A stretch of 53,503 nucleotides of DNA, the filler included. It is 4 parts of 4 records of this genome, joined end to end, with 100 filler letters (N's around TTAATTAATTAA, not from the genome) between each part and the next. Parts side by side here need not be neighbours in the genome. Positions count along the whole stretch, not along the records: positions 32,340 to 53,503 come from SRR20825006_3113; 3 more parts are not named here. One strand, written 5' to 3'. The notes under the pieces are model-generated. The model saw nothing but the letters and a program-made list of their open reading frames with translations. It searched no databases and was not told where the DNA came from. The translations under genes and the position numbers were made by a program. Of the stretch, positions 31,436-53,177 are shown one piece after another (the first letter of the stretch is position 1; each line of letters starts with the position of its first letter).

Positions 31436-32239
31436 ATGACTACTCTTGCTGACAAACCAAATTATAACGACGAGATCGTGAAGCTCTTCACGATCGCCAC
31501 CATTTTCTGGGGCGTGGTAGGCTTTACTGTGGGCGTGTTTATCGCGTTACAGATGGCTTTTCCCGGCCTGAACTTCGGTGAATATCTCACCTTTGGCAGG
31601 TTACGGCCGGTGCATACATCCGCCGTTATCTTTGCCTTTGGCGGGAACGCACTGTTTGCCACCAGCTATTTTGTTGTGCAGCGAACCTGCCGCACACGGC
31701 TGTGGGGCGATAACGTGGCAACCTTCACATTCTGGGGCTATCAGGCCTTTATCGTGATGGCGGCGCTTGGCTATGTGCTTGGGGTCACCCAGGCCAAGGA
31801 ATATGCCGAACCAGAATGGTACGCCGACCTATGGCTAACCTTCGTGTGGGTGGCTTACCTCGTTGTTTTCATGATGACGCTGAAGAACCGGCGCGAACCG
31901 CACATCTATGTGGCCAACTGGTTCTATCTCTCGTTTATCGTCACTGTTGCCGTGCTGCACCTCGGCAACAATATCGCCATTCCGGTATCCTTCACGGAAG
32001 TGAAAAGCTACCCAATGTGGGGCGGTGTGCAGTCGGCACTTATCCAGTGGTGGTACGGCCACAATGCCGTGGGCTTTTTCCTCACCGCCGGTTTCCTTGG
32101 CATCATGTATTATTTTGTGCCCAAACGCGCAGAACGCCCGGTCTACAGCTACCGACTTTCCATCCTGCACTTCTGGTCGCTGATCTTCATCTATATATGG
32201 GCGGGGCCACACCACCTGCATTACACCGCCCTGCCTGAT
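31436..32239 (+). CDS. ccoN: cbb3-type cytochrome c oxidase subunit I, 3'-truncated
   Basis: [55 protein letters not shown]. Confidence 0.97.
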
Positions 32240-32339
32240 NNNNNNNNNNNNNNNNNNNNNNNNNNNNNNNNNNNNNNNNNNNNTTAATTAATTAANNNNN
32301 NNNNNNNNNNNNNNNNNNNNNNNNNNNNNNNNNNNNNNN
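32240..32339. other. Artificial contig spacer
   Basis: N44-TTAATTAATTAA-N44. Confidence 0.98.
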
Positions 32340-32694: not shown

Positions 32695-33978
32695 ATGAGT
32701 TCACAAGAGATTAAAAAAATTATCAAAAGGGATTACAGCACGGCACCTTTTGTATTAGAAAAAATTACGAATGCGATAAGCAATGCGATGGCAGCTTTAG
32801 GACACGGGTCTGAGCAAGATGCTAAATTGATCTCAATGCAGGTGTATGAGGCTTTGTTGATCAATAAAGACAGTGAAGCAGACTATATCCCAACGGTAGA
32901 GCAAGTGCAGGATATGGTTGAAGAAAAGCTGATGAGCAGTGAATTTCATGATGTGGCTAAAGCGTATATCATCTACCGTAACAAACGTGCGATGGAGCGC
33001 AAAACCAATATTTTTGAGAAGCGCATTAACCTTAAACCATACGAGTACCCAGAGCTGAATGAATATGTTGCTGCGATTAGACACTCTTATTGGATTCATA
33101 CCGAATTTAATTTCACCAGCGATATCCAGGATTTTAAAACCGGTCTAAGCGAAGTAGAGCGTAGCGCGATCAAAAACACGATGCTTGCTATTTCTCAGAT
33201 CGAAGTTGCAGTGAAAACCTTCTGGGGAGATGTGCACCATCGTTTACCAAAACCTGAGATCGCGGCTGTAGGGGCGACCTTTGCAGAAAGTGAAGTAAGA
33301 CATCACGATGCCTATTCCCACCTGCTTGAGATTTTAGGCCTTAACGAAGAGTTTAAAGAGCTTAAAAAGAAGCCGGTAATCATGAAGCGTGTGCACTATT
33401 TAGAGACTTCGCTCAAGCACGCTAAAAGTGATGATGATAGAGAATACACAGAGTCTATTTTGCTCTTTGCTTTGTTTATTGAGCACGTATCGCTGTTCTC
33501 TCAATTCTTGATCATTATGGCGTTCAACAAGCATAAAAATATGCTTAAGGGAATTTCTAATGCAGTAGAAGCGACTTCAAAAGAAGAGCAGATTCACGGA
33601 GATTTTGGTGTAGATATCATCAACATCATCAAGAAAGAAAATCCAGAGTGGTTTGATGAAGACCACAACAACTTGATCAAGGACATGTGCTTGAGATCAT
33701 TTGAGGCAGAAAGCAAAGTGGTAGATTGGATTTTTGAAAAAGGCGAACTAGACTTCTTACCAAAAGCAGTGATCAATGAGTTTGTTAAAAACAGATTCAA
33801 CAAATCGCTTGAAGCCATCGGTCTTGATAAACTCTTTGATATCGATGAAGCATTACTTCAGGAAACCGAATGGTTTGATGATGAAATTATAGGAACCAAG
33901 CACGGCGATTTCTTCGTAAAACGCTCGATCAATTATAGCAAAAGAACACAAAGTATAACCAGTGACGATTTATTTTAA
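32695..33978 (+). CDS. nrdB: Ribonucleotide reductase beta subunit (class Id type) with N-terminal ATP cone
   Basis: First ~100 aa form an ATP cone (IIKRD...F..EKI..AI..A...VEQVQDMVEEKLM...VAKAYIIYR). The R2 core has QIEVAVK, ESEVRH..AY, IEHVSLFSQF and KEEQIH. Confidence 0.95.
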   Translation: MSSQEIKKIIKRDYSTAPFVLEKITNAISNAMAALGHGSEQDAKLISMQVYEALLINKDSEADYIPTVEQVQDMVEEKLMSSEFHDVAKAYIIYRNKRAMERKTNIFEKRINLKPYEYPELNEYVAAIRHSYWIHTEFNFTSDIQDFKTGLSEVERSAIKNTMLAISQIEVAVKTFWGDVHHRLPKPEIAAVGATFAESEVRHHDAYSHLLEILGLNEEFKELKKKPVIMKRVHYLETSLKHAKSDDDREYTESILLFALFIEHVSLFSQFLIIMAFNKHKNMLKGISNAVEATSKEEQIHGDFGVDIINIIKKENPEWFDEDHNNLIKDMCLRSFEAESKVVDWIFEKGELDFLPKAVINEFVKNRFNKSLEAIGLDKLFDIDEALLQETEWFDDEIIGTKHGDFFVKRSINYSKRTQSITSDDLF

Positions 33979-33981
33979 GCC

Positions 33982-35787
33982 ATGAGAGAAAACACTACAG
34001 ATTTCCAAAACACAACAGAGACCCAAGTTCAACCTTCAAAAGAAAGCGATCTTTTAAAAGCACGTCGTGACGCATTGCACGATGCTACCGAAAAGACCGA
34101 AGAAACAGAAGGATCATTTAAATGGCTTACAGAGCACAGCCGTAGCTTTTTAGCGGCAGGTTACCTTTCTGAAGGGGTGAGCGCAGAAGAGCGTATACGT
34201 GAGATTGCAGATCGTGCTGAAGAGATTTTAGAAATGCCTGGTTTTTCAGATAAGTTCTACAAATATATGGGCGAAGGCTATTTCTCATTGGCTTCTCCGG
34301 TTTGGTCAAACTTTGGTAAAAAGCGTGGTCTCCCTATCAGTTGTTTTGGGTCGCATATCGATGATGATATGGGTAACATTCTATACACACAGTCTGAGGT
34401 GGGTATGATGTCAAAACTTGGTGGTGGTACTTCTGGGTATTTTGGAAAAATTCGTCATCGTGGTGCTGCGGTGAAGAACAATGGTTATGCAAGTGGAGCG
34501 GTACACATCATGCAACTGTTTGATAAGATGGTTGATGTAGTGAGTCAAGGTTCTGTGCGTCGTGGTAGATTCTCTCCTTATTTGCCAATCAGTCACCCGG
34601 ATATCAAAGAATTCTTAGAGATTGGTACCGAAGGGAACTCGATTCAGCAATTGACACACGGGGTTACTGTAGACAGCACTTGGATGCAGGAGATGATCGA
34701 TGGAGATACAGATAAGCGTGAGGTTTGGGCCAAAGTATTACAGCGTCGTGGCGAGATGGGTTATCCGTATATTTTCTATACCGATAATGCAAACAACGGA
34801 AAACCGGATGTTTATAAAGATAAAGGGCACGATATTTACGCAAGTAACCTTTGTACTGAGATCATGTTACCTTCTAGTGATGAGTGGTCTTTTGTATGTG
34901 TACTTTCTTCAATAAACGTATTGCATTATGATAAGTGGAAGAATACAGATGCTGTAGAAACTATGGTGTGCTTCCTTGATGCAGTACTTACCGAATTTAT
35001 AGACAAACTTGAAGAGTATCGTGATTCAGATAATCGCGATCATCGCCAGACTTTCATGTTTATGGAGCGTGCATATAACTTCGCAAAATCAAACAGAGCT
35101 TTAGGTCTAGGAGTATTAGGATGGCACTCGTTACTTCAGTCTAAGAGACACGCGTTTGATAGCCAAGAAGCTTACGACCTGAATAGTGAGATCTTTAGAG
35201 AGATCAAGCAACGTTCCTATAAAGCTTCAGAAGAACTTGCAGAGAAGTTTGGTGAGCCTGAAGTTTTAAAAGGCTACGGAAGACGTAACGCAACGCTTAA
35301 TGCTATTGCACCTACTACTTCTTCAGCATTTATTTTAGGACAGGTTTCTCAAGGTATCGAGCCGATCTGGTCTAATGTGTATGTAAAAGATATCGCTAAG
35401 ATTAAGACGACCATCAAAAATCCATTCTTAGAAGAGCTTTTTGAAGAAAAAGGTATGAATACTCCAGAAGTGTGGAGAAGCGTACGTGATAACGACGGTA
35501 GCGTTCAGCATCTTGAATTCTTAACGGAGCAGGAAAAAGACGTATTTAAAACCTATGCAGAGATCGATCAGATGGCGATCATTTATCAAGCTGCAAACAG
35601 ACAAAACCATATTGATCAAGGACAATCAATAAACCTTTTAGTGCATCCTGATATGCCTATTAAGGAGATCAATAAAATTCATATCACCGCCTGGAAACTA
35701 GGTTTGAAGTCGCTTTACTATCAGCACAGTATGAATGCTGCGCAGAAGTTTAAGCAGAAAAAAGAGTGTGTAAGCTGTGAAGCTTAA
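33982..35787 (+). CDS. nrdA: Ribonucleotide reductase alpha subunit lacking an ATP cone
   Basis: PISCF, SNLCTEI (thiyl Cys), APTTSS, KSLYY and C-terminal CVSC. Only 601 aa. Confidence 0.95.
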   Translation: MRENTTDFQNTTETQVQPSKESDLLKARRDALHDATEKTEETEGSFKWLTEHSRSFLAAGYLSEGVSAEERIREIADRAEEILEMPGFSDKFYKYMGEGYFSLASPVWSNFGKKRGLPISCFGSHIDDDMGNILYTQSEVGMMSKLGGGTSGYFGKIRHRGAAVKNNGYASGAVHIMQLFDKMVDVVSQGSVRRGRFSPYLPISHPDIKEFLEIGTEGNSIQQLTHGVTVDSTWMQEMIDGDTDKREVWAKVLQRRGEMGYPYIFYTDNANNGKPDVYKDKGHDIYASNLCTEIMLPSSDEWSFVCVLSSINVLHYDKWKNTDAVETMVCFLDAVLTEFIDKLEEYRDSDNRDHRQTFMFMERAYNFAKSNRALGLGVLGWHSLLQSKRHAFDSQEAYDLNSEIFREIKQRSYKASEELAEKFGEPEVLKGYGRRNATLNAIAPTTSSAFILGQVSQGIEPIWSNVYVKDIAKIKTTIKNPFLEELFEEKGMNTPEVWRSVRDNDGSVQHLEFLTEQEKDVFKTYAEIDQMAIIYQAANRQNHIDQGQSINLLVHPDMPIKEINKIHITAWKLGLKSLYYQHSMNAAQKFKQKKECVSCEA

Positions 35788-35802
35788 CTAATTGAAGCAA
35801 CT

Positions 35803-35832
35803 AAAAAACCCGCCAATTGGCGGGTTTTTTTT
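35803..35832. terminator. Bidirectional intrinsic terminator
   Basis: AAAAAACCCGCC-AATT-GGCGGGTTTTTTTT between convergent genes. Confidence 0.9.
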
Positions 35833-35963
35833 ATATAGATTTTTTAGTGTTTTATACCGTAACTGAATAGAAAAACTTAATGTTGATAAGCTCGAAACAT
35901 TGAATTTACTCGACGATCTTAATATAAGTGGAGGTTTAGGCTTTGCTATCTTGTTTTATCTGC

Positions 35964-36950
35964 CTAAAAACCAGTAATCTCAAATTCTATATACTTAAAT
36001 GTGCTTAGATTATAAGTCGTATTTGTGTAGACATAACCGTAGTAATACGTGCCATTCTCCCAGGCCTTATTTCCCGTTACGGGATTAGAATTTGGTAAGT
36101 TGTTATCTGTGTCTGCACCTATTTTGTACGCAGCGCCATACATATAATGATTATTGAAGTTTGTGTTATAACTATTTTGAAATGCTCTAATTTCTTCATA
36201 ATCTGAGTGTTTTTTCACATCAGTAACAATGGTTTTCGAGAAATCTATGTCTTCAACCGTTTCGGGTTTGTGATCAAAGCTCTTTTTGATCAATAAACCA
36301 TACATGATTCCATCGCCTTTTATATTACCAATTTGAACTGATGCCCAGATAGATTCATCCTTTCTAAATGAGGGGTTTTCAGTGTTTCTAAACTCCCCGT
36401 TGTTATAGAAGTTATTGAAGCCTCCTTTTCCATCTACGTCAATTTTGTCTACTCCAAAAGCGCTTACGTGTGGGAAAACATCAGGATAGTCTTCAATGTC
36501 AATCAAGCTGATCTTCCTTGTTTCCTCCAGACTCGTCCCGTTCATATCCTCAACGGTAATTTTAAAATCGTAGAGCCCTTTAGGAGCCTCTTCAGGAATG
36601 TCAAAATGTCGATGTAGCGTTGCGTTCTTTAATCCTGCGATTCTTTCAGTAAAAATCACTTCAAGCGTCCACTCATCTTCATAGGTTTCCTCATCCCTCT
36701 GTACAATGTTTATTCTAACAGCTTGAAGAAGGTCGCCTGCTAAAACTTCGGCATTAAAATGGAAATCACCGCCAACAACACCAATTTCATTATTGTGAAG
36801 ACCAACTTCAATATCTGAAATGGTAGGCTCTGGTTTAGGACCTTCTATATTAGTTTCGTCCTCACTACACGAGGTAATCATCAGGCTAAAAAAAGCTGAA
36901 AAAAGGAAAAGGATAATTCTCGTTATAAAGTGTTGATTTATAATCTTCAT
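35964..36950 (-). CDS. DUF4625-like lipoprotein with an extra C-terminal domain
   Basis: Lipobox ITS-C, GGDFHFNAEV.AG, LHRHFDIPEEAPKGLY.F.I.V.D.NG. Confidence 0.72.
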   Translation of the reverse strand: MKIINQHFITRIILFLFSAFFSLMITSCSEDETNIEGPKPEPTISDIEVGLHNNEIGVVGGDFHFNAEVLAGDLLQAVRINIVQRDEETYEDEWTLEVIFTERIAGLKNATLHRHFDIPEEAPKGLYDFKITVEDMNGTSLEETRKISLIDIEDYPDVFPHVSAFGVDKIDVDGKGGFNNFYNNGEFRNTENPSFRKDESIWASVQIGNIKGDGIMYGLLIKKSFDHKPETVEDIDFSKTIVTDVKKHSDYEEIRAFQNSYNTNFNNHYMYGAAYKIGADTDNNLPNSNPVTGNKAWENGTYYYGYVYTNTTYNLSTFKYIEFEITGF

Positions 36951-36961
36951 TTTTGTTTATG

Positions 36962-37438
36962 CTAATCTGTTATTTTAATATCTATGGAGGTCCTGCTTTG
37001 CCATCCGGTTTCATCGGTAACAGAATATGCACAGTGGTAATCGCCGGTGTCAATATCTTCAGGAATGCTCACTTCAATTTGAATTTCATATTCCGTAGGT
37101 CTGTTATCTAAACTGAAGTTTTCCATGTAGATCAACGGGTTTACCGCAGTTTTTACGGGTTCCAGATCACAAGTAGCCCCTTGGTCGTCGTGTGTGTGAT
37201 GGTCAAAGTTATGATGTAAATCAAGGCTGTATGAAGCCAGTGCGAGATTGTCTGTTACTCTTGCAGTAAAGGTGTAAGTCTCCCCACGCTGTAGGGTTTC
37301 ACAACCTTGCGGAAAACCGGCACTGTAGTCTACTGTAATGGTTGGTCGTTCTTCATCTCTAACCGAATCATTATCTGACGAACACGATGCGATAAAAAGA
37401 CTGCCAAAAATGAGTGTTATTAAAGCTATTCTTTTCAT
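36962..37438 (-). CDS. His-rich DUF4625-like lipoprotein
   Basis: Lipobox IAS-C, DNLALASYSLDLHHNFDHHTHD, IPEDIDTGDYH...VTD.TGW. Confidence 0.8.
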   Translation of the reverse strand: MKRIALITLIFGSLFIASCSSDNDSVRDEERPTITVDYSAGFPQGCETLQRGETYTFTARVTDNLALASYSLDLHHNFDHHTHDDQGATCDLEPVKTAVNPLIYMENFSLDNRPTEYEIQIEVSIPEDIDTGDYHCAYSVTDETGWQSRTSIDIKITD

Positions 37439-37536
37439 AAAAATTTATTTTTTCTCAATGATTGAGTAAGGTTTACTGAGCATAAGCTCAGGCTAATGCT
37501 ATGTGTGGCTCAAAGCCACAAAAGCGATTAAAAACT

Positions 37537-37563
37537 AAATGCCTGCAACACGCAGGCATTTAA
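37537..37563. terminator. Intra-operon hairpin after the first lipoprotein gene
   Basis: AAATGCCTGC-AACAC-GCAGGCATTT. Confidence 0.5.
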
Positions 37564-37575
37564 TTTTAATACAGT

Positions 37576-38352
37576 TTAGGCAGTCACGTCAAGATGCGTG
37601 TCAATTTCAGAGATGTTACCTTCTTCATCTTCAATAGTGATAACCATGTGGTATTCACCTACTGGCGCAGTAGCAGGAACATCAATATGCTCGTGAAATT
37701 CTACTGAAGTTTCCCCGTGGTAACCTTCTTCAAAAATTTGCTCAAAATCCCATTCTGCTTCACCTTCTCCTACGGTGAGTCCGTGCGCGTGAATGTCAAC
37801 GGTGATGTTGTGTACTCCGTGTACCGCTTCGATCAAAAATTCAGCGTGAAAATCAGAACCGCGCGCTACGCTTTCATCAATTGAAAGATTGCTGGTAGTA
37901 ACAGGATCTAATACTTGAATGTGACCTTCAACTTCTGTGCTGTTTCCGTTAGTATCAGTAACAGTCAGTGTGATGTGGTATTCTCCCGCCGGAGCTGTAG
38001 CAGGAACATCTACGTGCTCGTGAAAAGTAGGGTTGATTACCAGATAGCTTTCATCTGTAAATTCTTGCTCAAAATGCCATTCTTCTTCGCCTTCACCAAC
38101 TTCAAGGTCGTGTGCGTGAATGTCTAAAGCAATACTGCTTACAGTAGCTTCTGCAACGATCTCTGCTTCTAAGTGAATGTCAGAACCTTTGTAAGCTACC
38201 TGCTCATCGCCGTGCGTGCTTCCTTCTCCAAACTCAAAATTTGAGATGAGAGGAGCTTCTTCTACAATGACATCGGTGTCATCATCACTACACGAGCTTA
38301 AAGTAATACCCGCAAGTACAAATAGTGCTAAGTGTTTCATGTTTAGTTTCAT
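37576..38352 (-). CDS. His-rich lipoprotein with two tandem DUF4625-like domains
   Basis: Lipobox LSS-C, two copies of GSD.H.E...DIHAH.L.VGEGE.EW.FEQ.F...FHEH.DVPATAP.GEYH. Confidence 0.8.
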   Translation of the reverse strand: MKLNMKHLALFVLAGITLSSCSDDDTDVIVEEAPLISNFEFGEGSTHGDEQVAYKGSDIHLEAEIVAEATVSSIALDIHAHDLEVGEGEEEWHFEQEFTDESYLVINPTFHEHVDVPATAPAGEYHITLTVTDTNGNSTEVEGHIQVLDPVTTSNLSIDESVARGSDFHAEFLIEAVHGVHNITVDIHAHGLTVGEGEAEWDFEQIFEEGYHGETSVEFHEHIDVPATAPVGEYHMVITIEDEEGNISEIDTHLDVTA

Positions 38353-38394
38353 AAAATTTAGATTTAGTGTTTATTGATTAATTAATAAAAGAGT

Positions 38395-40755
38395 TTAAAA
38401 AGGCAGGGTTAACGAAACCGATAGGTTCCTTCCGGCTTCCGGCACGTCGATGAGCCTGTAGAAGCTGGTATGATCATAATATTCTGTATTGAACACATTG
38501 TTGAGTTTTACGCGCAACAATGTGGGGTTTTGATTGTTAAACAGGTTGAGTTTGCTCATCACCGCGAGGTTGAGCATTTGGTAACCTGCTGTGATTTCTT
38601 CGGGGGGTACGATATCTGTCTGCGCTGCCGCAACACGCAAGTCGGCATTAAGATTCACGTCTTTAAAAAGGCTCCAATTGCCCAGGTTATAATTTGCGGA
38701 AAGCATCCCGATTAATGGGGGAGAAAATGGAATCGTAAATCCTTCTTTGGGTCCGCTCGTTTGTCTTGAATACACATATTCTGCGGAAGCGTCTAAACGA
38801 AAATCTTGAGAGACCTGCATTCCTGCGGTTACTTCACCACCGGTCCGGAATACTTCAGCCTGTGTGTATTCATACACCTGAAGCGTTTCAACATAATTTG
38901 AAGTTGGGTTGAGGTAGATGTAATTTTCAAAGTAGTTGAGAAACGGACTAACCCCAAAATTGAATCTGCCGGCAGTATGGGTTACTTCGGCGTCCAGTTG
39001 ATACGAAGCCTCCGGGTCCAGATCAAGATTTCCGCGCTCGTAGCGATACATATGATAATTCACCCCATCTGAAGCGAGTTCGTGCGCGAGCGGCATTCTA
39101 AAGCTCTTTCCGGCGTTCAGTTTATAGGTGGTGTTCCCGTGAATGTAACTGATGCCCACCGAACCGCTAAAACTTCCAAAATCAAGAGTTCTGTTTTCGG
39201 CGCGTTGCAGATATACGTTTGAGATAGACCCATCAGGGTTGTCCCGTGGCGAGCGGTACCAGTCATAATGCGCTTTGGTTGCTACGCGTCCCGCATCAAA
39301 CCGTAACCCGCCTTGCAAGTGTATGTCTTCGGTTAATTCAAAATGATCAAATAAATAAGCTCCGGCAGTGTAGCGGTCATACGCCGGAATCAAGAATCCC
39401 CAGCCGCCAATATTGTTGTTTTGTAATTCGGTATTGATTCCGGCAGAAAGGGTGTGATTTTCAACTTTAAAAATATCTTTCGCGTTTAGGGAATATGTGT
39501 TTTTTGTAAATACGCGTTCTCTACTGTTAGGCGGTGTAGGCATATAACCGTGAGGCACCGGCTCAGAATGTTCTTCACGCTGGTTATTTTGATAACCCAG
39601 GTCAAAATGCAAGGTGTGCTCATCTAGATTTATCGTGGTATTATTGGTGACTTTAACGTGATTTACTTTATGAAAAGGCAGGTCGATATCACGATTTGAG
39701 ACGTCATAATCAATGGTTGAAGAACGCACTTCAAGTCCGTGCGCATTGGCGAAGAATCCGTTTTTTGCATTGACGTTGCTTACAAAGGTTTCAGACCTGA
39801 AATTTTCGCTCACATAACCAAAACTGAAACTTCCGTTAGCTTCGCGACCGGCGGTATTTCTCAAGTCGTTATCATACAGCTCAAAGACATAATTCTCATA
39901 ATTAATACGGTCAGTAGGTACTTTGAAATCGGCATAATCACGATAGGTAAGCCGCGCCCGATAATACCACTTTTGTTTTCTGCCTTGTACTCCTGCTGAG
40001 ACTGCGAGAATGTCATTATTGGTTTCACCTAAAACATTGACTTCTCCGCCAAACGAATTGACCGCAGGTGCTTTTGAAGGCTGAATATCTACCACACCGG
40101 CAATGGCATCAGAACCGTACATTAAGGAAGCTGGCCCTTTAATAATGCGAATGTCTTGTATGCCGTATTGGTCGATCTCAAGGCCGTGATCGCTACCCCA
40201 TTGTTGCGCCTCGTGCTTGATCCCGTTTTGCACCACGCTTACCCGATTAAATCCAAGTCCTCTGATCGTAGGTTTAGATTGCCCCGAACCAATGGTCATC
40301 GTGCTGACGCCGGGTATTTTTCTAAGGGTTTGCATCAGGCTGTTTTCGCGATTGGCATGAAGAAATTCTTCATCTACGGAAACGGAAACAGTAGCCGATT
40401 CTTTCTCGATACGCGAACTGGTCTTTCCTTGTACCGAAACTTCGTCTAGCGAGGTACTGCTAGGCTTGAGTTTAATGACTAAAGGTGTGCTTTGATTGGC
40501 GTTAAGTGTGAATTTCGCGGAAGCGTAACCCAAATGCGAAACTTCAAAAACCGTTGAATTTTTAGGACTTTTCAGTCGAAAGGCACCTAAATCATCAGTC
40601 ACGGCATACGTGTTTTCGCCCAGAATGGTAACTCCGGAAAGTGGCTTTAATGAAACGGAATCTACAACAGAACCTTTAATGATTGAGGTTTGCTGCGCAA
40701 AGGAATATGTGCTAAGTACGAGACTTAGACATACAACCAGTAGTCTGAATAGCAT
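38395..40755 (-). CDS. TonB-dependent receptor with N-terminal carboxypeptidase-regulatory-like domain
   Basis: Signal peptide, plug motifs KPTIRGLG.NRV...QQWGSDHG and IIKGPASLMYGSDAIAGV, HSEPVPHG loop, terminal GRNLSVSLTLPF. Confidence 0.92.
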   Translation of the reverse strand: MLFRLLVVCLSLVLSTYSFAQQTSIIKGSVVDSVSLKPLSGVTILGENTYAVTDDLGAFRLKSPKNSTVFEVSHLGYASAKFTLNANQSTPLVIKLKPSSTSLDEVSVQGKTSSRIEKESATVSVSVDEEFLHANRENSLMQTLRKIPGVSTMTIGSGQSKPTIRGLGFNRVSVVQNGIKHEAQQWGSDHGLEIDQYGIQDIRIIKGPASLMYGSDAIAGVVDIQPSKAPAVNSFGGEVNVLGETNNDILAVSAGVQGRKQKWYYRARLTYRDYADFKVPTDRINYENYVFELYDNDLRNTAGREANGSFSFGYVSENFRSETFVSNVNAKNGFFANAHGLEVRSSTIDYDVSNRDIDLPFHKVNHVKVTNNTTINLDEHTLHFDLGYQNNQREEHSEPVPHGYMPTPPNSRERVFTKNTYSLNAKDIFKVENHTLSAGINTELQNNNIGGWGFLIPAYDRYTAGAYLFDHFELTEDIHLQGGLRFDAGRVATKAHYDWYRSPRDNPDGSISNVYLQRAENRTLDFGSFSGSVGISYIHGNTTYKLNAGKSFRMPLAHELASDGVNYHMYRYERGNLDLDPEASYQLDAEVTHTAGRFNFGVSPFLNYFENYIYLNPTSNYVETLQVYEYTQAEVFRTGGEVTAGMQVSQDFRLDASAEYVYSRQTSGPKEGFTIPFSPPLIGMLSANYNLGNWSLFKDVNLNADLRVAAAQTDIVPPEEITAGYQMLNLAVMSKLNLFNNQNPTLLRVKLNNVFNTEYYDHTSFYRLIDVPEAGRNLSVSLTLPF

Positions 40756-40918
40756 GCGTAAAAAGAATAAGGATTAAACTTCCTTAGAAAAAGGAAATAG
40801 GGAAATCAGAGGGTTATCCTTCTCATATAATACAAGTGGTCAATAGGAATCAATACCTAACGACAAGCCACAAGAGCGCTATGCTTTTGAGGTTGTATTC
40901 TAAAAAAAGAGGATAAGA

Positions 40919-41236
40919 TTATGCTGCCGGTGGAGGCCGGGAAAACAGGTGATAGGAATATGATGTTCCTTGGTAAAAAACAGCAGAAGTAATTGGCTGT
41001 TTTTCTTGATATTCCGGGTAAAAAGAATCAGGAACAAATGCTTCAGGCTCTTGCAAGATTACAGCAGTCTGATGTTCTGTTACCAAAACGTGACAAATCG
41101 CACAGTCGTCCTTTACGTCTGTATCTTCGTGAGTAAGCACGTGAAGACCGGCCATTTTCGTAGTAAGAAAAAAGGCTAGGAATAAAAGCGAGATGTACTG
41201 TTTTATTCGTGCGTTCATAGTGCGATACAATCCCAA
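40919..41236 (-). CDS. Putative metal-sensing leader peptide (DUF2946/CruR/CutF-like); start at 41236 or 41218
   Basis: Hydrophobic N-terminus, HVLTHE...DDCAICH, and C-terminal SRPPPAA*. Directly upstream of a TonB-dependent receptor. Confidence 0.7.
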   Translation of the reverse strand: MGLYRTMNARIKQYISLLFLAFFLTTKMAGLHVLTHEDTDVKDDCAICHVLVTEHQTAVILQEPEAFVPDSFYPEYQEKQPITSAVFYQGTSYSYHLFSRPPPAA

Positions 41237-41263
41237 TGCTACCTAAATACTGCGATAGCGCGG

Positions 41264-41307
41264 CAAAAATAGGAATTCCATCTCAACTTTATGCAACAAA
41301 GCTGCGT
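41264..41307 (-). promoter_or_regulatory. Bacteroidota promoter with overlapping palindromic operator (possible Fur/Zur-family site)
   Basis: Minus-strand TATTTTTG (TAnnTTTG) at 41264-41271 and imperfect palindrome ATGCAAC-AAA-GCTGCGT at 41291-41307 over the expected -33 region. Confidence 0.5.
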
Positions 41308-41385
41308 TAATTTGAATACGGAGTTCCGCGTGCTGGTTGTTTGATTTTATTTAGCAGCCACCAAAGAGAATACACTCGAGAGCTA

Positions 41386-44300
41386 TTACTGCTGGAGCTG
41401 AACATCTAAATAAACCGAATGTCTGTCATAGGTTTCAAAAAAGGGCTTAAAAGTTGTGCCATCTATAGTGAACTCCAGTGCTTTTGGATCTCCGGAAATG
41501 GTTTTTCCGAGATCTTCGGCGTTGAGGGTGATTGTTCTAAAATCGGTGCTTGGGGCTTCTTCTTGTGCCGCTAAAAGTACAGGCCCATAAAACAGACTTG
41601 CGATATTTTCTTGATCCATAATAGGATCTAGCCTAAAGCTAAATGGCATTTTGAGTGCTACAGTATCCCCATTTTTCCAGCTTCGGCTAAGCTTCAGGTA
41701 GCTGCCGGGTTTAGCATTTGTTTTTTGAATTTTTCCGTTGATTTTGACCTCGATGCCATTGGTTGCCCAACCGGGAATTCTCAAATGCAAATCAAACTTT
41801 GCTTTTCCGTTGATGATCAATTTGGTTTGATCTTCTCGCGGATATGCCGTCACTTGTTGAATACTGATCTGCTGTTCGCTCCACTGTAAAGTAGATGGAA
41901 CAAAGAGATTTACATAAAGCGCTTTATTATCCTGACTTTTAAAATAAATCGAATTTTGAAGCTTGGTGCTGCTTTCTATCGCGGTTCCGTTACAGCAGGT
42001 AAAACCACTCATATCTGCATTGCTAAACTGTTTTTTAGAGCCGGGACGCAACGGAATATGATACGTATTCGCCGGAGTATGCTCTGCCACCGATGCCAAG
42101 ATCTGATTATAAAGCGCTTGCTCATAATAATCCATCAACTCGGGTTGCTGATTGTAGAGAAATAAACCACGACTTAATTTGAGCATGTTGTAGGTTCCGC
42201 AGGTTTCGTTTTGACCACCAGCTGATAACCCATTTTCATACAAGGTAGCCGGCTGCGCGACAAAGCATTCTGCATTTGCCGGATTTCTAGCACCTGCCAC
42301 ACCGCCAATGCTATACATATAATCGTTTTTAGTTTTATACCAAAAATTATCGGCGATATGATAATAGGCAGCATTTTTAGAGTTTCGATATAATTCTAAT
42401 GCGCCCATAATCTGAGGAATGTGTTGATTGGCGTGCAGACCGCGATAAGTGTCTACATTTTTTGCGAGTCCGTGATTATGCTGAGCATCACCATAAAATA
42501 CCTTGATATTATCAAACAGCTGGGCTGCTTTCAGATAGTTTTCATTCTCGGTTATGCGGTATAAATGAGCAAGCGACTCGTTAATGCCGCCAAACTCTCC
42601 GGCGATATAGGTATTCCACATTGTGATCAGCGTTTCCGTAGGGAGTTGGCTTAGACGGGCATATACCCAACTCGCCATTCCCTCTGCGGTATGCAGCGCT
42701 TTTTCATTTCCGCTTACTTCATATACATCCAGAAGTCCGGCTAGAATTTTATGTAAGGTGTAATAAGGAGCCCAAACCTGTGTTTCCTGACCACCATATT
42801 TTGCGCCGTGCTCAAGCATTATAAATTGGTCTGGCGGATAGGCGCTAATGTACCCTTCACCCCAATTCCAATAATCTGTACGAATACCCGCTTCGCTTAA
42901 ATCTGATGAGTAAATCTCTTTATTTGGACCGGTAGGAACGGCAGTAGGATCGCTGACGAAAGTTGCGCTTGCAGTTGTTGGTTTTCCTGAGCGTTGTGAT
43001 AAATCATAAAGCGTATTTACCATATAGCTCATCTTTGCTTCAAAATTTTGCTGAAGCGTGTTGTCATAGCCTGTACTCGCATAGGCTTGGGCGATCGCGG
43101 TTAAATAATGCCCGGTTGCGTGGCCGCGAAGTTTTGTTTCTTGCGTATCCCAAACGCCAAGAGGCGTTGCTCCTTCAGGTTGAGGCTGCCCAAAAGCATT
43201 TCTAAACATATACAAAAACGAGTCAGGGTTGGTGCCAGCCAGTGTAGTGATAAACTTATCGCGATTCTCAATAAATTTTGATTTTTGGCCCAAACGGTTT
43301 GCATCAAGACTTACCTCATTTAAAGCAAACGCTTCAAGGGTGCGTTGCGGCGTTTCTTGGGCATTACCTTTTTTGACCACTACGGTCGCTTTAGGCTGAA
43401 AAGAAGTGCCTAATACTTGGCCTGTAATTTCATAAGTTCCCGGTTGCAGCACGCTGCTATTATCTGTTGGTGCTGGCCAGATCACACGAACTTTAGTCGT
43501 GTTTACCGGTATTTTATACGTTGCGTCAACAAAACGAGGCAAGCGCGGAAGTTGGCCCACGACGGTTTCTACTGTAAGATCTGAGACACCTGTTAAATAG
43601 TTATTATACAATTGCGGCACATCATCAGCAAACTGCGGAAGGTTGTCTTCAGGCTCGTGACGCTCATTGACCACACTTTCTTCTTTGCCGGTGGCGATGG
43701 CGTAAATGTTTTTTACTTGATTTTGACTCAGCGGTATTCGGTAGATTCTAAAATCGTGCAGCTTGGCTTGTAAGTTAGCCACAGAAGCAGCAAGTGATTT
43801 GCCTAAGTACAGGGTATTATTTTCAGTATTGATTATGGTGTTCAAGTCAAATGCGCTCAACGTTTTTTGAGAAGCCAAAGCCCCGTTGAGGTAGATTTCT
43901 AAGCGCTGAGCAGTAGCATCTACAATTACTGCAAGATGCGCCCAAGTACCACTATTTAATTTGGAAAAAGTACCGGTGAGAGCGTTAGCGTTTGATTTTA
44001 AAACAACATTTCCTGAGACCGGATTAACATAAAAATGCCGGGCTGAATCTTTACCAAAATCAAACAGTGTTTGGTTTTCAGTATTTTGATCGAGTTGAAT
44101 CCAAGTGGAGATCGACAAGGATTCCATACTGTTTAAGGTGGTTTTCGGGAGTTGAACGAACGCCGCGTCAGTTAAAGAAAGCACCTTATTAAAAGTGGAG
44201 TCAGTGGTAAATTCAGCATTTTCTGATAAAGTGGCGTGGAGATTATTTCGCGACCAATCTTTAGCATTTCCATCAAAAATATAGCGTGCAATAAGCGCAG

Positions 44301-49294: not shown

Positions 49295-50284
49295 TTAGAG
49301 CATATAATTTAAGTGTAAACCTAAACGGTATTTGGCTTCGACGTTTCCGGCATTGAGATCTTGATGTACCGGAAGCATAACATTCACTCCGGTTCCTAAT
49401 TTTCCGAAAGAGATCTCTGCGCCTAATCGGGCAAACATAACATTCCCTTTAGTGTCAGCCACAGGCAAGCCGTAACTTTCATTTTCGGCGTAAACTTCGC
49501 CTGCTAATCCCGCATAAGGAATGATCTTATCAATACTTAAGGTGTTATATACTTTAGAAACATTGACACCATATGTAAATTGATTACCAAAATGATAATC
49601 CGCATTATTTTCGGTTTTAAAAGTATAATTGGCCAGAACGCCTAATCCCCAAGTCTCATATCCCACCGAATAATTTGCGGCAAGAATATAATCCCAACTT
49701 CCTGTACCAACCTGAAAACTTGGATTTACACTGCCTTCATTATTGGCGCGGTCGTAAGCGCCGGTAGGCATTTTAACACCACCACCAATCTCAAGCATAT
49801 GCTTAAAGGTGGTTTGCTGATTAGCATAAAGCCCGTCCATTTTTGGCGTGATCAAGGAGTAGAAAGCAAGAACACTAAGATCACCAATCCCATCGATGCT
49901 TTGCGAGGAGCCGTCAACAAAATTACGGTTATGAAAATGATAAGGTAAAATCGCGGTTACGCTTAACTTTTCGGTCACGGGAATTTTCCCCCAAAGCTGT
50001 AGCGTATTGAAATTCTCTTCAACCCAAGGCGAGTTATTAAAAATTCCGTCGCGTGATTGATAGCGCTGATAAATGTAACGGATACCGATGAAATTTTCAT
50101 TTCCGATAGTGCCGTAGCCCATTCCGCCACCGGTGCTTCCGCAGCCGCAAAAATCACATTCTTCATAATCATATTTGTAGAATGGGTTAGGGTCAGGGTT
50201 TGCTGGTTGTTTTATTTCTTTTGCCTGAACCAAAGCACTTGTGGCTAGTAATAGGCAGCTTATAATGATATGTTTTGTTGTCAT
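49295..50284 (-). CDS. Putative outer-membrane beta-barrel ('transporter' family) with N-terminal CxxCxC
   Basis: Signal peptide, ECDFCGC, GIGD, GVKMPTG, Q.GTGSWD and amphipathic strands ending LHLNYML. Confidence 0.7.
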   Translation of the reverse strand: MTTKHIIISCLLLATSALVQAKEIKQPANPDPNPFYKYDYEECDFCGCGSTGGGMGYGTIGNENFIGIRYIYQRYQSRDGIFNNSPWVEENFNTLQLWGKIPVTEKLSVTAILPYHFHNRNFVDGSSQSIDGIGDLSVLAFYSLITPKMDGLYANQQTTFKHMLEIGGGVKMPTGAYDRANNEGSVNPSFQVGTGSWDYILAANYSVGYETWGLGVLANYTFKTENNADYHFGNQFTYGVNVSKVYNTLSIDKIIPYAGLAGEVYAENESYGLPVADTKGNVMFARLGAEISFGKLGTGVNVMLPVHQDLNAGNVEAKYRLGLHLNYML

Positions 50285-50289
50285 AGGTA

Positions 50290-51327
50290 TTAATTTAGGT
50301 GTTGAAATTGGGTGTCTGTTAAAGTGTTTAAAAATGCTAAAAGTGCCTTTTTGTCCTGAGCTGATAAGGCAATCCCCACTTGGGTTTCAGATTTTAAAAT
50401 AGGATCTAAAAATTCTGAATCTTGTACTCCAGAATTATAAAACTCAAGTACTTCTTCTAGTGTCTCAAACCTGCCGTCGTGCATATAAGGAGCCGTAATC
50501 ATCACATTGCGTAAGGTTGGCGTTTTATACGCGCCAAGATCCTCTAAATTGCGGTTTACGCGAAATCTTCCTAAAAACAGTTCGTCGTGATCAGTGTTGT
50601 CAAAACTGGCATCAAGACCATTATTGTGATACGCATTATCTGTAAATAGATCGCTCGCGTGACATTGAGCACATTTATTAAGATAAATGGTATAGCCATC
50701 TTGTTCTAAAGCGTTCAATAGTACTTCATCTTCACCTCTTACATATTGATCATAAGTACTCTCTGCAAAAACCAGCGTACGTTGATATTGTGCCAAAGCC
50801 TGCATTACTAAATTGCTGCTGATCTCTTGATTAAAAGCTTCTTTAAATAGCTGTGAGTATTGAGTGTTTTGGGTGAGTTCTTGCTCAAGAAGCATTAAAT
50901 CTTGAAACATTTCATCTTCGTGCGCCAAAGGTGCAAAAGCTTGAGATTCTAGATTCTTGGAGCCACCGTCCCAAAAAAGCCCGTTATCTGCCCATGCTAG
51001 ATTGATGAGCGCTGGAACGTGTCTCATTAATGATTTTCCTGAAATTCCTTTTGAGCTCAGTGCGATTCCATCAGAAAAGGCCAATTCCGGTATGTGACAA
51101 GTCGCACAGGATACTTGATTATTTCCGGAGAGCATGGGGTCAAAAAATAATTTTTTTCCAAGTGCTACTCCAGCAGCCGTTAGGGGATTGTCTGGTGTCG
51201 TTGGAGGTTCAGGAAAATTAGAAGGAACCCGCAGTGCGTACTGCGGGTTTTCTACATATTCTGCTTCTTGGTTAGAGCAACCCATGTAAACCAAAATCAA
51301 TAGCGCTATTAAAGCTTTATTATTCAT
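50290..51327 (-). CDS. Di-heme bCcP/MauG-superfamily lipoprotein, MbnH-like (copy 2)
   Basis: CATCH and CAQCH heme motifs, FWDG, KTPTLRN..ITAPYMHDG, LEFY. Confidence 0.88.
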   Translation of the reverse strand: MNNKALIALLILVYMGCSNQEAEYVENPQYALRVPSNFPEPPTTPDNPLTAAGVALGKKLFFDPMLSGNNQVSCATCHIPELAFSDGIALSSKGISGKSLMRHVPALINLAWADNGLFWDGGSKNLESQAFAPLAHEDEMFQDLMLLEQELTQNTQYSQLFKEAFNQEISSNLVMQALAQYQRTLVFAESTYDQYVRGEDEVLLNALEQDGYTIYLNKCAQCHASDLFTDNAYHNNGLDASFDNTDHDELFLGRFRVNRNLEDLGAYKTPTLRNVMITAPYMHDGRFETLEEVLEFYNSGVQDSEFLDPILKSETQVGIALSAQDKKALLAFLNTLTDTQFQHLN

Positions 51328-52114
51328 TAGAGTCTGACTGAAGCGTAAAAGTTGTATTCTGAAAGTTATCGGCCATTACGGTCATTGCTTCGGGTGTAGA
51401 AGCCCCGATGATCGGTGTCTCAGCAAAATCGATTCCTTCTAACATACCGGTGATTTCGGAAGCAATGGTCACAGTATTGTTTGTGCTTCCGTTTACTGAA
51501 ATCGCTTCAGAAAAAGGGATCGTTAAGGTTCTATAGCTCGAATTAAGTCCGGTTTCTAATGTGAGTTCGGTTGCATTGTTTAGCATTCCTTTTACCGAAG
51601 CAAAAATGTAGCTTGTGTGCCACATCCAAGAAATATTGGTCATACCATTGAGTTGCGATAATTCACCGGCTTGTAAGCTTAAGTTGTCGTTGTACTGAGA
51701 ATCTATTCCTATTGAGAATTGAATATCTGTATATTCTCCTGCAGGAATGCCTGAAAGAGCTATAGATTCTCTCTGAGTTGCCGGATATTCATAGGCTCCA
51801 TCCTGAATGCTGATAGCACCGGTTTCTTCTATCAAAAAATAAGATTCTGGGAGGGCAACAGCCTCTCCAGCTTCATTGATTAAAACAATATTACTCACCC
51901 AGTACCGCAATTGATTTATAGTAATACTTTCCCCATTGATAGTGTAAGTTTGATCAAGAGTAAACGGCTCACCGGCTACCTGACTGTCAAAGGTAAGATT
52001 GATAGCTCCTGGTTCTGAGGCGGTAAGATCTGTAGTTGCAATATCATCATCGTTACTGCAAGAGGTGAATAAGGTGATTAAAAGAATTAAGATTGATATA
52101 TAGTTTGTTTTCAT
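51320..52114 (-). CDS. MbnP-family lipoprotein (copy 2)
   Basis: Lipobox FTS-C, LRYWVSNI.L, IPAGEY..I.F.IGID and the WxW motif SWMWHTSYIF...G. Confidence 0.78.
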   Translation of the reverse strand: MKTNYISILILLITLFTSCSNDDDIATTDLTASEPGAINLTFDSQVAGEPFTLDQTYTINGESITINQLRYWVSNIVLINEAGEAVALPESYFLIEETGAISIQDGAYEYPATQRESIALSGIPAGEYTDIQFSIGIDSQYNDNLSLQAGELSQLNGMTNISWMWHTSYIFASVKGMLNNATELTLETGLNSSYRTLTIPFSEAISVNGSTNNTVTIASEITGMLEGIDFAETPIIGASTPEAMTVMADNFQNTTFTLQSDSNE

Positions 52115-52127
52115 TTTTATGTTTTAT

Positions 52128-53177
52128 TTAATATTCTGCAAAACGCTCGTCTTCCAGAAACTCATTATCGGTAAGGGTATTTAGAAAAGCGATCAGTGCT
52201 TCTTGCTCACCTGTGGTGAGCGCAATTCCCAAACGTTCATTTTGTTTTAAAATAGGATCTAAGGTCTCAGATTCCTGTACTCCCGAATTGTAAAAATTGA
52301 GTACCGACTGTAAACTTCCAAAGCGGCCGTCATGCATATAAGGCGCAGTAATTGCTACATTGCGCAAACTGGGAACTTTAAATTTATAATTGTCTGCTGC
52401 GCTTCCGCTTACCTCAGCACGCCCAATGTCATCAATGCCCGGATAGGGTGGGAGCCCATTATTTCTAAATGAATTGTCAGTAAACAAATCGGTTGCATGA
52501 CAGGTAGCACATTTTGACTCAAAAACAGCGAGACCTTCTTTTTCCAAGTCTGAAAATTCGCCACCTTCTTCATTGCGTACATACTTGTCATACTTGGAGT
52601 TTGAAGAGATCATTGTTACCATAAACTGAGCGAGTGCTTTTAAAAAGTTTTCATTAGAAACTTCAGCATCTTCAAAAGCCGAAGCAAACAGGCGCTGATA
52701 TTCGCTATCTGCCTGCAGCTTGCTCAGCACATTAGTCATCGTTTCTCCCATTTCTACTTCGTTAGTTATAGGAATAATAGGAAACAGGTCAAGATGTGAG
52801 GTCGCGCCATCCCAGGCAAATTCGGTTTGAAATGCCATGTTCTGAATTGCCGGAGCGTTGCGCGTTCCTTCAAGATCATCGATCCCGTGACTAAATTGGT
52901 GCCCGTGATGCGTAAAGGCAAAACGCTGCTCATGACAAAAACCGCAAGAGATAAATCCGTTAGCTGAAAGCTTTCCGTCATAAAATAACTTTTTACCCAG
53001 TTCTACTCCGTTTTTGGTAGGCGGATTCGCGCTGAGGTCATAATTGATCTCCGGAAAATTATCAGGAAGCTCTAGCGCCAAAGCTTCGTCGATTGCAATG
53101 TATTCTGCGTCATCATTGCTGCTGCACGAAGCAAAAATGCATAGCAAAGCACAGCAGCTTATAAGCAATGATTTCAT
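52128..53177 (-). CDS. Di-heme bCcP/MauG-superfamily lipoprotein, MbnH-like (copy 1)
   Basis: Lipobox FAS-C, CGFCH and CATCH, THHGH.FSHG, AWDG, FKVPSLRN..TAPYMHDG, LNFY. Confidence 0.9.
   Translation of the reverse strand: MKSLLISCCALLCIFASCSSNDDAEYIAIDEALALELPDNFPEINYDLSANPPTKNGVELGKKLFYDGKLSANGFISCGFCHEQRFAFTHHGHQFSHGIDDLEGTRNAPAIQNMAFQTEFAWDGATSHLDLFPIIPITNEVEMGETMTNVLSKLQADSEYQRLFASAFEDAEVSNENFLKALAQFMVTMISSNSKYDKYVRNEEGGEFSDLEKEGLAVFESKCATCHATDLFTDNSFRNNGLPPYPGIDDIGRAEVSGSAADNYKFKVPSLRNVAITAPYMHDGRFGSLQSVLNFYNSGVQESETLDPILKQNERLGIALTTGEQEALIAFLNTLTDNEFLEDERFAEY

Follow-up and report, generated by a model that had tools for sequence, protein, structure and literature searches.

Is the small open reading frame (ORF) that opens a TonB-dependent receptor operon in a marine flavobacterial genome the gene of a working protein, or is it a leader that is translated for the sake of the genes behind it? 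The operon lies at 35964-41307 of the window, the whole stretch of 53,503 nucleotides (nt), joined from four records, that was analysed, and it comprises five consecutive ORFs on the minus strand, which encode a product of 99 amino acids (aa), the receptor and three lipoproteins (Table 1). It seems fairly probable that the small ORF is a leader in which the ribosome stalls according to the zinc, or another metal, found at an exported site, that the RPPP motif where it stalls is spaced from this site as if by a ruler, and that an RNA switch thereby controls the receptor operon.

A previous sequence-only reading had placed an ORF of about 100 aa, a receptor and three lipoproteins on one strand, and had noticed a hydrophobic N-terminus, HxxxH and CAICH in the small product. 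All five ORFs were found at the positions given, on the minus strand, and the motifs are present as H26VLTH30 and C39AICH43. The RPPP described as terminal is there too (R94PPP97), but it is not strictly terminal, being followed by Ala-Ala and the TAA stop codon. The same reading had staked itself on conservation of the small ORF, and conservation in frame was found at each depth of search described below.

Conservation of the putative leader and its length ruler

The leader family is recognised by a hydrophobic N-terminus, followed by HxxxH and CxxC, by a linker that varies in sequence but hardly in length and by (H/Q)LFSRPPP two to three codons before the stop. A word-seeded protein search found 15 relatives of 99-113 aa, with identity down to ~35% over the full length; in their alignment H26, H30, C39, C42 and the whole of L91-F-S-R-P-P-P97 are invariant. 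Scanning one genome per species with the peptide patterns ...LFSRPPP and ...HVLTH gave 34 loci (numbered with L below), 32 of them in Flavobacteriaceae and other Bacteroidota and two in metagenome-assembled genomes (MAGs) of Acidobacteriaceae. When 37 sequences were aligned, H26, C39, C42 and L91-P97 remained invariant and H30 was kept in at least 90%, while residues ~55-90, between CxxC and LFSRPPP, were the least conserved and appear free to vary. A profile made from 37 family members was compared with 1.84 billion representatives, with no word index, and matched 528 clusters at E<=1e-3, 184 of them at E<=1e-10. The best 150 of the 528 matches are all 77-130 aa long. Among the best 149 new matches, 142 have R-x-P-P near the C-terminus, five have NKPPP and two are apparently truncated. 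LFSRPPP itself occurs in 80 of the 142, the rest having LFCRPPP, LFGRPPP and other forms; HxxxH is present in 139 of the 142, and the commonest forms have D, E or H after C-x-x-C. The NKPPP members (P0119, P0137, P0147, P0157 and P0160) end in (L/I)(F/Y)NKPPP, with Lys at the Arg position of LFSRPPP.

From CxxC to the Arg of RPPP the gap measures exactly 51 aa, both in the window and in 28 of the 34 loci; it is 49 aa in three Flagellimonas/Allomuricauda loci and 43 aa in the two acidobacterial ones. Among the 142 best profile matches with R-x-P-P, the gap is 50-52 aa in 137, and the tail past the last Pro, 2 aa in the window, is 2-3 aa in 123. Meanwhile, the C-terminal motif is written with varying codons across the loci: Leu with six, Arg with six, Ser with TCN and AGC, and Pro with all four. 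This synonymous variation indicates that the peptide, and not the DNA as a nucleotide string, is under selection at the putative arrest motif.

Some loci depart from the common form. The Acidobacteriaceae leaders (L032, 7929-8312; L033, 7902-8267) keep HLFSRPPP and have CHAHD...CPLC and the 43-aa ruler. In L030 the leader (4951-5199) is decayed: it lacks CxxC, it has RPSP where RPPP is expected, and the 2.8 kb downstream contain no gene, which fits the loss of a leader after its operon had gone.

Residues 8-20 of the window's leader are hydrophobic, with Lys on both sides. AlphaFold2 (AF2), supplied with an alignment of 37 rows, predicted a helix at 3-29 (predicted local distance difference test, pLDDT, ~90), a short helix at 40-48 and nothing more (mean pLDDT 62.8). 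An export-like N-terminus, conserved cysteines and histidines, together with a place that is always beside metal-handling genes would also suit a mature exported or membrane-anchored metal-binding accessory, such as a chaperone or a partner of the receptor, in which PPP would serve structure or binding and no stalling would take place. However, residues 45-90 vary freely while their count is constant, AF2 gives no fold past residue 48, the same leader stands before partners that are unrelated to one another, in the cytoplasm (COG0523), the inner membrane (ABC) and the outer membrane, and there is covariation between the spacer RNA and the last part of the leader ORF. An accessory protein is thus an improbable explanation.

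The leader ORF of the window has no match in Pfam or NCBIfam even at E<=10. In 12 of 149 family members, sub-threshold matches (E 0.004-0.8; cut-off 130 bits) were obtained to NCBIfam NF047702, the Leptospira 'LIC10965 family', and they always reach the C-terminal end of its 104-position model; this family may be a spirochaete counterpart of the leader. In the ESM Atlas, 29 of the 30 nearest clusters are unnamed Bacteroidota proteins. One look-alike cluster is acidobacterial (score 0.92, 154 shared features) and has DUF2946 in 54% of its members, which gives a lead to distant kinship and is not a proof of it.

Spacer RNA and the region upstream of the leader

The spacer between the leader and the receptor gene folds better than its shuffles (z -2.69), and three of its segments, named R1, R2 and R3 from 5' to 3', can form two alternative helices. 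In the window, R1 pairs with R2 (CUUAUCCUC with GAAGGAUAA) in a duplex of -12.9 kcal/mol (z -2.94). For the comparison of 26 loci, R1 was taken as the 26 nt following the leader stop and its best partner was sought within the spacer. In 15 of the 26 loci this partner is located 39-62 nt upstream of the receptor ATG, and L016 and L017 also fit the position once the start of their receptors is corrected; the z-score of the duplex is <=-2 in 11 of the 26. The arms are CUUGUCG with CGACAAG in L003, CCCGUA with UACGGG in L018, UUGCAGGG with CCCUGCAA in L002 and CCCUAUACAU with AUGUAUAGG in most other genera. They diverge among lineages yet remain complementary, so R1 and R2 covary. Arms from the same locus pair with a mean of -14.4 kcal/mol versus -9.1 kcal/mol for mismatched loci, and the observed value was reached in none of 20000 permutations, both with 22 loci and with 17 non-redundant ones. 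The predicted R1:R2 helix can be regarded as well supported.

The alternative duplex, R2:R3, has -15.3 kcal/mol in the window. R3 corresponds to a conserved CAAAUCUUAUAGU-like segment, whose end in most loci is 8-15 nt upstream of the ATG. The mean for matched loci is -9.8 versus -7.4 kcal/mol for mismatched ones (p 5e-5), and the helix pairs in 81.9% of alignment cells versus <=58% when slid. With the first 16 spacer nt forced open, the unpaired probability of positions -25 to -8 relative to the receptor ATG falls in 13 of 22 loci and rises in none. A switch from R1:R2 to R2:R3 is plausible, and it is not presented here as established.

R2 (as TATAGGTTTTG) together with R3 was also considered as an internal promoter, and this was ruled out, there being no consistent TAnnTTTG and R1 covarying with R2. 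A search of the window and six loci against Rfam at gathering thresholds yielded a single tRNA, in L022; the spacers gave no match. A scan of 35700-41500 for sigma-70 promoters and intrinsic terminators gave no more than the shuffle expectation, and none in the leader-receptor spacer on the minus strand.

Upstream of the leader, the sequence-only reading had assumed a promoter with an operator, and this part of it was not confirmed. No inverted repeats of >=8 nt were found in 41219-41390, and the sole promoter-like element, TATTTTTG, matches TAnnTTTG, the Bacteroidota -7 promoter consensus, a pattern that is not enriched in the window (43 found versus 53 expected from shuffles). In 21 of 33 related loci TAnnTTTG occurs at -12 to -16 of the leader ATG, which, if the presumed promoter geometry is right, suggests a leaderless or nearly leaderless mRNA for the leader. 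A TTAACA or GTTAA-N7-TTAAC-like motif lies ~40 nt before the leader ATG in many loci. L002 has GCAACAnTGTTGC palindromes upstream of its leader, and in L016 (4238-4615, minus strand) and L017 (6732-7109, minus strand) a Fur-family gene is divergent to the leader, with palindromes TTGCAATA...TATTGCAA between the two.

The divergent Fur-family genes with their palindromes and the conserved motifs ~40 nt before many leaders are what would be expected if control were only transcriptional, by a repressor of the Fur/Zur type at the promoter, with the small ORF and the spacer structure as bystanders. This would leave the invariant LFSRPPP, the 51-aa ruler and the R1:R2 covariation without explanation, and the window has no operator-like repeat upstream of its leader; besides, transcriptional control and control by the leader could coexist. 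Repression at the promoter as the sole control is, therefore, quite improbable.

Table 1. Features of the operon and of its putative regulatory region (positions along the window)
Feature	Position	Strand	Remarks
Leader ORF	40919-41218	-	99 aa and stop; from the ATG conserved in relatives
Leader ORF, alternative TTG start	40919-41236	-	105 aa
Promoter-like element TATTTTTG	41264-41271	-	TAnnTTTG match; 53 nt before leader ATG
Codons of H26-V-L-T-H30	41129-41143	-	Right after the hydrophobic N-terminal helix
Codons of C39-A-I-C42-H43	41090-41104	-	Putative metal site with H26/H30, from conservation
Codons of L91-F-S-R-P-P-P97	40928-40948	-	Putative arrest motif, from conservation; then Ala-Ala, TAA
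Leader-receptor spacer	between 40919-41218 and 38395-40755	-	163 nt
R1	40893-40917	-	5' arm of long-range helix; starts 2 nt past leader stop
R2	40800-40835	-	Purine-rich; core GAGAAGGAUAAC at 40813-40824; pairs with R1 or R3
R3	40763-40787	-	Pyrimidine-rich; alternative partner of R2; ends 8 nt before receptor AUG
TonB-dependent receptor, ZnuD-like	38395-40755	-	786 aa; CarbopepD_reg_2, Plug and TonB barrel (Pfam)
Lipoprotein, two DUF4625 domains	37576-38352	-	258 aa; DIHAH and FHEH each twice; domains by Pfam
DUF4625 lipoprotein	36962-37438	-	158 aa; LHHNFDHHTH; domain by Pfam
Lipoprotein, N-terminal DUF4625	35964-36950	-	328 aa; C-terminal half of ~180 aa without domain assignment (Pfam)

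Downstream genes, the candidate metal and the setting of the operon

The neighbourhood survey that the sequence-only reading had proposed was run on the 34 loci, and the expected arrangement of leader, receptor and DUF4625 genes proved common, but not general. A TonB receptor follows the leader directly in 26 loci; in 21 it is orthologous to that of the window (57-98% identity), with DUF4625 genes next in 19 of these, the contigs of the other two ending within the receptor. L028, L029, L031 and L034 have a different TonB receptor (24-28% identity), which is followed in L028 and L034, the two of the four that were scanned with Pfam, by genes for an ABC ATPase and a pair of DUF3526 ABC-2 permeases. 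In L012 the leader stands before such an ABC-2 set alone. In L010, L013 and L022 it precedes a CobW/COG0523 GTPase (Pfam), with a MacB/FtsX-type ABC pair next in L010 and L013; the GTPase of L010 scores 569 bits with the ZigA zinc-metallochaperone model (cut-off 600, E 4e-171). The downstream gene encodes a DUF5829 protein in L023 and a CarboxypepD_reg and Plug protein in the acidobacterial L032. Two leader loci lie at contig ends, and L030 has no nearby gene. Where both an intact leader and a downstream gene are present, the spacer between them is 57-640 nt long. In four of four loci scanned, a gene for a MerC-family membrane protein on the same strand ends ~60 nt before the leader (L005, 7548-7934; L006, 4873-5259; L008, 7362-7934; L034, 4516-4902), and the gene ahead of it encodes either a methyltransferase or a pyridine-nucleotide disulphide oxidoreductase.

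The best solved relative of the window's receptor is ZnuD (4rdr, E 3.7e-21), with OprC next (6e-9), and ZnuD (NF038289) is also its best NCBIfam model. The receptor differs from Neisseria ZnuD in its Bacteroidota-type N-terminal CarboxypepD_reg domain and its dedicated lipoproteins.

The three lipoproteins had been described as DUF4625-type and as rich in the histidine clusters DIHAH, FHEH and HHNFDHHTH; the motifs are present, and Pfam places all three in this family (PF15418; 192.9, 138 and 84.5 bits, cut-off 27). Each begins with a hydrophobic leader and a lipobox Cys followed by acidic residues, a combination that we take to resemble the Bacteroidota surface-export signal. In the 258-aa lipoprotein the lipobox is LSSC, followed by DDD, and each DUF4625 domain bears HxH...HxH; 15 of its 20 His, both HxH...HxH sets included, are invariant in 16 of 16 orthologues, and no solved structure is similar to it by sequence. 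In 16 of 16 sequences, with 55-71% identity elsewhere, the HxNFDHHTHDDQ loop of the 158-aa lipoprotein is unchanged. Its AF2 model is an immunoglobulin-like (Ig-like) sandwich (pLDDT 64.5, below 50 in the His loop), for which Foldseek returned only generic Ig-like matches with a template modelling (TM) score of ~0.4, carrying no information on metal binding. A role as 'lids' of non-SusC transporters has been proposed for DUF4625 proteins, with cofitness of BT1419 and BT1420 (bioRxiv 10.1101/2023.03.17.533168). There, as here, a DUF4625 lipoprotein gene lies beside a TonB-dependent transporter gene, whereas the present operon has three paralogues with four domains in all and invariant His clusters; the accessible text of that preprint proposes no substrate.

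The sequence-only reading had left the metal open among Zn, Ni, Co and Cu, and this list can now be narrowed toward zinc by the neighbourhoods of the paralogous leaders and the ZnuD-like receptor. Zinc is our best guess because of the ZigA-like COG0523 proteins, the ZnuGHI-like ABC-2 sets, the ZnuD-like receptor, the divergent Fur-family gene and the His2Cys2 set of ligands. In Caulobacter, the TonB receptor gene znuK and the genes znuGHI for an ABC-2 ATPase with two permeases are Zur-regulated (PMC4176598), and the sets of an ABC protein and two DUF3526 ABC-2 permeases behind the leaders resemble znuGHI.

Copper is a serious rival. The same stalling leader might respond to copper, or to Ni or Co, and the operon might import copper as CruR-BfrG does: the characterised DUF2946 leaders in the publications available all sense copper, CxxC is described as a classic Cu(I) motif, and the receptor matches not only OprC but also the TonB-copper model (66 bits). 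Clusters of CutF-like proteins with other ligands have been linked to Ni/Co (PMC9973294). Moreover, a copper-type cluster with MbnP- and MbnH-like genes lies 8 kb away. This cluster (49295-53177, minus strand) comprises MbnP (51320-52114), MbnH-like di-haem peroxidases (50290-51327 and 52128-53177) and an outer-membrane channel-like protein (49295-50284), and homologues of cruR have MbnPH-like genes among their copper-linked neighbours (PMC9426467). The gene before it (53224-53487), which runs off the window, is not a leader of the RPPP type. Against copper stand the paralogous leaders before ZigA-like COG0523 and ZnuGHI-like ABC-2 genes, the structural relatives of the receptor, among which ZnuD leads by 12 orders of magnitude in E-value, and the His2Cys2 ligand set, which in our view suits Zn. 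In addition, the survey of RAPP/RGPP upstream ORFs (uORFs), in the text available, saw none before Cu-related genes in Bacteroidota. A copper, nickel or cobalt cue is, on this evidence, unlikely, though it deserves to be kept in view.

A stalling leader need not report a metal at all. RAPP-type arrest peptides are described as monitors of Sec/YidC, RAPP uORFs have been noted also before thioredoxin and DsbA genes, pauses at PPP depend on elongation factor P (EF-P; bioRxiv 10.1101/2024.08.03.606492), and a thioredoxin-like gene lies within the operon of L034, so the cue might be the thiol-redox or disulfide state of CxxC, Sec load or EF-P activity. However, metal-uptake or zinc-starvation genes lie downstream in 30 of 31 readable loci, L023 with its DUF5829 gene being the exception, and Sec, Dsb or EF-P genes in none; besides, not only the Cys pair but also the His pair is conserved. 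A cue of this kind is very improbable, and a metal-sensing leader remains the preferred reading.

Upstream of the operon lies a GH127-type glycosidase gene and downstream a convergent ribonucleotide reductase gene, so its limits are as previously drawn. A locus of Leeuwenhoekiella palythoae (L001) shares 98% identity with the window across the leader, the receptor and the GH127 gene, and this part of the window can be assigned by sequence to a Leeuwenhoekiella genome. The ribonucleotide reductase small subunit (32695-33978, plus strand) bears an N-terminal ATP-cone, an arrangement reported for Leeuwenhoekiella blandensis NrdB. The 137 nt that separate the first lipoprotein gene from the second include an 11-bp perfect palindromic hairpin, TAAATGCCTGC...GCAGGCATTTA, at 37536-37562, which may serve as an internal attenuator or stabilise the transcript. 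The window appears composite: its GC content is ~0.47-0.53 at 1-8 kb, 0.28-0.36 between 8 and 20 kb, 0.46-0.58 between 20 and 32 kb and ~0.40 in the Leeuwenhoekiella part, from 32.3 kb onward. Elsewhere, a two-partner-secretion hemagglutinin-like ORF (594-6173) is accompanied by a ShlB-type partner (6189-7910), and a COX1-type ORF (31436-32287) stops at 283 aa, at the point of the GC drop.

Proposed course of regulation and known arrest leaders

In the proposed mechanism, the 99-aa ORF would be a cis-acting uORF and not the gene of a working protein. Its nascent chain would begin with a hydrophobic export signal and then carry a Cys2His2-type site (H26, H30, C39 and C42, plus H43). Fifty-one residues after CxxC the ribosome would meet (H/Q)LFSRPPP, presumably a strong polyproline pause, two codons from the stop, and the duration of the pause would be set by the occupancy of the exposed site by the metal, for which zinc is the guess. 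The position of the stalled ribosome would then decide the fold of the spacer. Judging from footprint sizes, in a CruR-like arrest, where the second Pro would occupy the P site, the ribosome's leading edge would lie approximately at the stop codon, short of R1, while a ribosome terminating at the stop would cover ~10 nt of R1. With a lasting stall, R1:R2 would persist and the receptor start would stay accessible; ribosomes that ran on freely to the stop would open R1, and R2 would pair with R3, which ends 8 nt before the receptor AUG. The RNA switch would thus set the translation, or Rho-dependent read-through, of the receptor and the three lipoproteins. The likeliest sign is that scarce metal causes the stall and turns uptake on, and bound metal causes release and turns uptake off, as proposed for CruR; this sign is favoured because uptake genes lie downstream, which makes for sensible feedback, and because it matches CruR. 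The opposite sign, or Rho-dependent termination within the spacer, would be compatible with the data as well.

Several points weigh against the proposed mechanism. The invariance of the motifs among the 34 loci is partly built in by the search patterns, and the profile search also rewards the LFSRPPP motif. Pfam DUF2946 (PF11162) matches none of 37 family members at E<=10, and no NCBIfam model reaches its cut-off in 149. The N-terminus was judged an export signal by eye and from the AF2 helix rather than by a predictor; along with export, we infer stalling, metal binding, the identity of the metal and the sign of regulation. As for the RNA, L024 and L014 are exceptions to R1:R2. R2:R3 shows little covariation, its score being reached by 75 of 500 shuffles, and RNAalifold, run on the 75 nt before the receptor ATG in 17 loci, with five poorly aligning Leeuwenhoekiella-type rows excluded, gave 0 pairs and no consensus. 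A first model, with the footprint ending 1-4 nt into the spacer, changed the accessibility of the start inconsistently (11 up and 7 down of 28). Finally, all characterised precedents sense copper, and the receptor, which resembles copper OprC too, scores far under the ZnuD cut-off (147.6 versus 950 bits).

The closest precedent is CruR (Bp2923) of Bordetella pertussis, a DUF2946 uORF with CXXC, RAPP three residues from the C-terminus and a 162-bp spacer before a TonB-dependent transporter gene; the gap between CXXC and RAPP is 45 residues, constant within 1-2 in more than 2000 DUF2946 proteins, and five inserted residues weakened copper control (PMC9426467). CruR was reported as predicted to be poorly structured, and homologues were described from proteobacteria, with a few more from Planctomycetes, Firmicutes and Deinococcus (PMC9426467). 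Its arrest was shown in vitro, with the third and fourth codons of RAPP in the P and A sites (PMC12992588). The leader of the window is likewise the first ORF of its operon, has a putative export-type N-terminus, an invariant CxxC, a linker of constant length and R-x-P-P near the stop, is predicted to be poorly structured and is followed, after a spacer of nearly the same length (163 nt), by a TonB-dependent receptor gene. It differs in having no match to the DUF2946 hidden Markov model (HMM), in its RPPP after invariant LFS, where the position and the R-x-P-P form of RAPP are retained and the Ala is not, in the gap of 51 instead of 45 residues, in its length (~100 aa versus 145), in the additional HxxxH, in the Bacteroidota host and, probably, in responding to zinc. 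Downstream, DUF4625 lipoproteins take the place of the PepSY_TM-type protein at CruR, and a long-range helix covaries in the spacer, whereas CruR was shown to work via Rho termination.

In Rhodobacter CutF, copper binding in the periplasm leads to a stall at a C-terminal PPP and to melting of a stem-loop before cutO (bioRxiv 10.1101/2025.02.05.636593). CutF resembles the proposed leader as a small protein with a Sec signal, a Cys/His site and a C-terminal PPP that acts in cis via an RNA structure in front of the next gene; however, it stalls on binding copper, switches on a detoxifying oxidase and has a short spacer, in contrast to the uptake genes and long spacer found here. RPPP itself served as the 'strong pausing', EF-P-dependent standard in a reporter study in E. 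coli (bioRxiv 10.1101/2024.08.03.606492). Öztürk et al. collected by rule 5,334 'CutF-like' proteins, 19% of them from Bacteroidota (40% after normalisation), with TonB-like genes among their commonest neighbours, and the main text has no mention of zinc (PMC9973294). The leader passes those filters of that collection that could be applied to it (less than 150 aa, PP within the last 15 residues, a same-strand neighbour at less than 1000 nt). Fujiwara et al. described RAPP and RGPP uORFs before TonB receptors throughout Gram-negatives, only these two motifs having been extracted (PMC12992588, PMC10987492). With these peptides, of the ApdA/ApdP/SecM type, the leader family shares an Arg-x-Pro-Pro core close to the C-terminus of a small, here putatively secreted, protein and the place upstream of TonB-dependent receptor genes, but its core is RPPP and not RAPP or RGPP.

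The sequence-only reading had seen in the locus a Bacteroidota counterpart of CruR and CutF; its architecture and the selection on its peptide support this in part, but the DUF2946 match and the RAPP core are wanting. It had also stated that no example of the arrangement was characterised, which is still so experimentally, although the accessible text of the CutF-like survey had already counted Bacteroidota proteins near TonB-like genes. In the literature searched for RPPP/LFSRPPP motifs, DUF4625, zinc/TonB in Bacteroidetes and CutF-like/CruR, no description of the leader family was found. The family probably represents the CruR/CutF principle outside the DUF2946 model, probably directed to zinc and combined with an RNA element that is new to this literature.

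Bacteroidota start translation largely without Shine-Dalgarno pairing. More tentatively, and with the odds rather against it, Flavobacteriia and some Acidobacteriota may sense envelope zinc by a nascent-chain ruler, in which a Cys2His2 site, 51 residues and LFSRPPP drive a three-part RNA switch, and a single leader family may rule the whole zinc-starvation set. If so, this set would include the ZnuD-like receptor with the His-rich DUF4625 surface proteins, the ZigA-like COG0523 protein and the ZnuGHI-like ABC-2 transporter, and zinc would gain its first translation-arrest sensor, as would this phylum. Metal-sensing arrest peptides would then reach from proteobacterial copper to Bacteroidota zinc. 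With 99 codons and 163 nt, the element would offer a compact object for testing how a metal bound off the ribosome, probably outside the cytoplasm, alters peptidyl transfer, and the exact ruler, of 51 residues here, 45 in DUF2946 and 43 in Acidobacteriaceae, would allow the geometry that links ribosome, translocon and sensor to be treated quantitatively. DUF4625 lipoproteins are widespread in gut and marine Bacteroidota and, to our knowledge, have no known ligand; as 'lids', they would gain a likely class of substrate, free transition metal.

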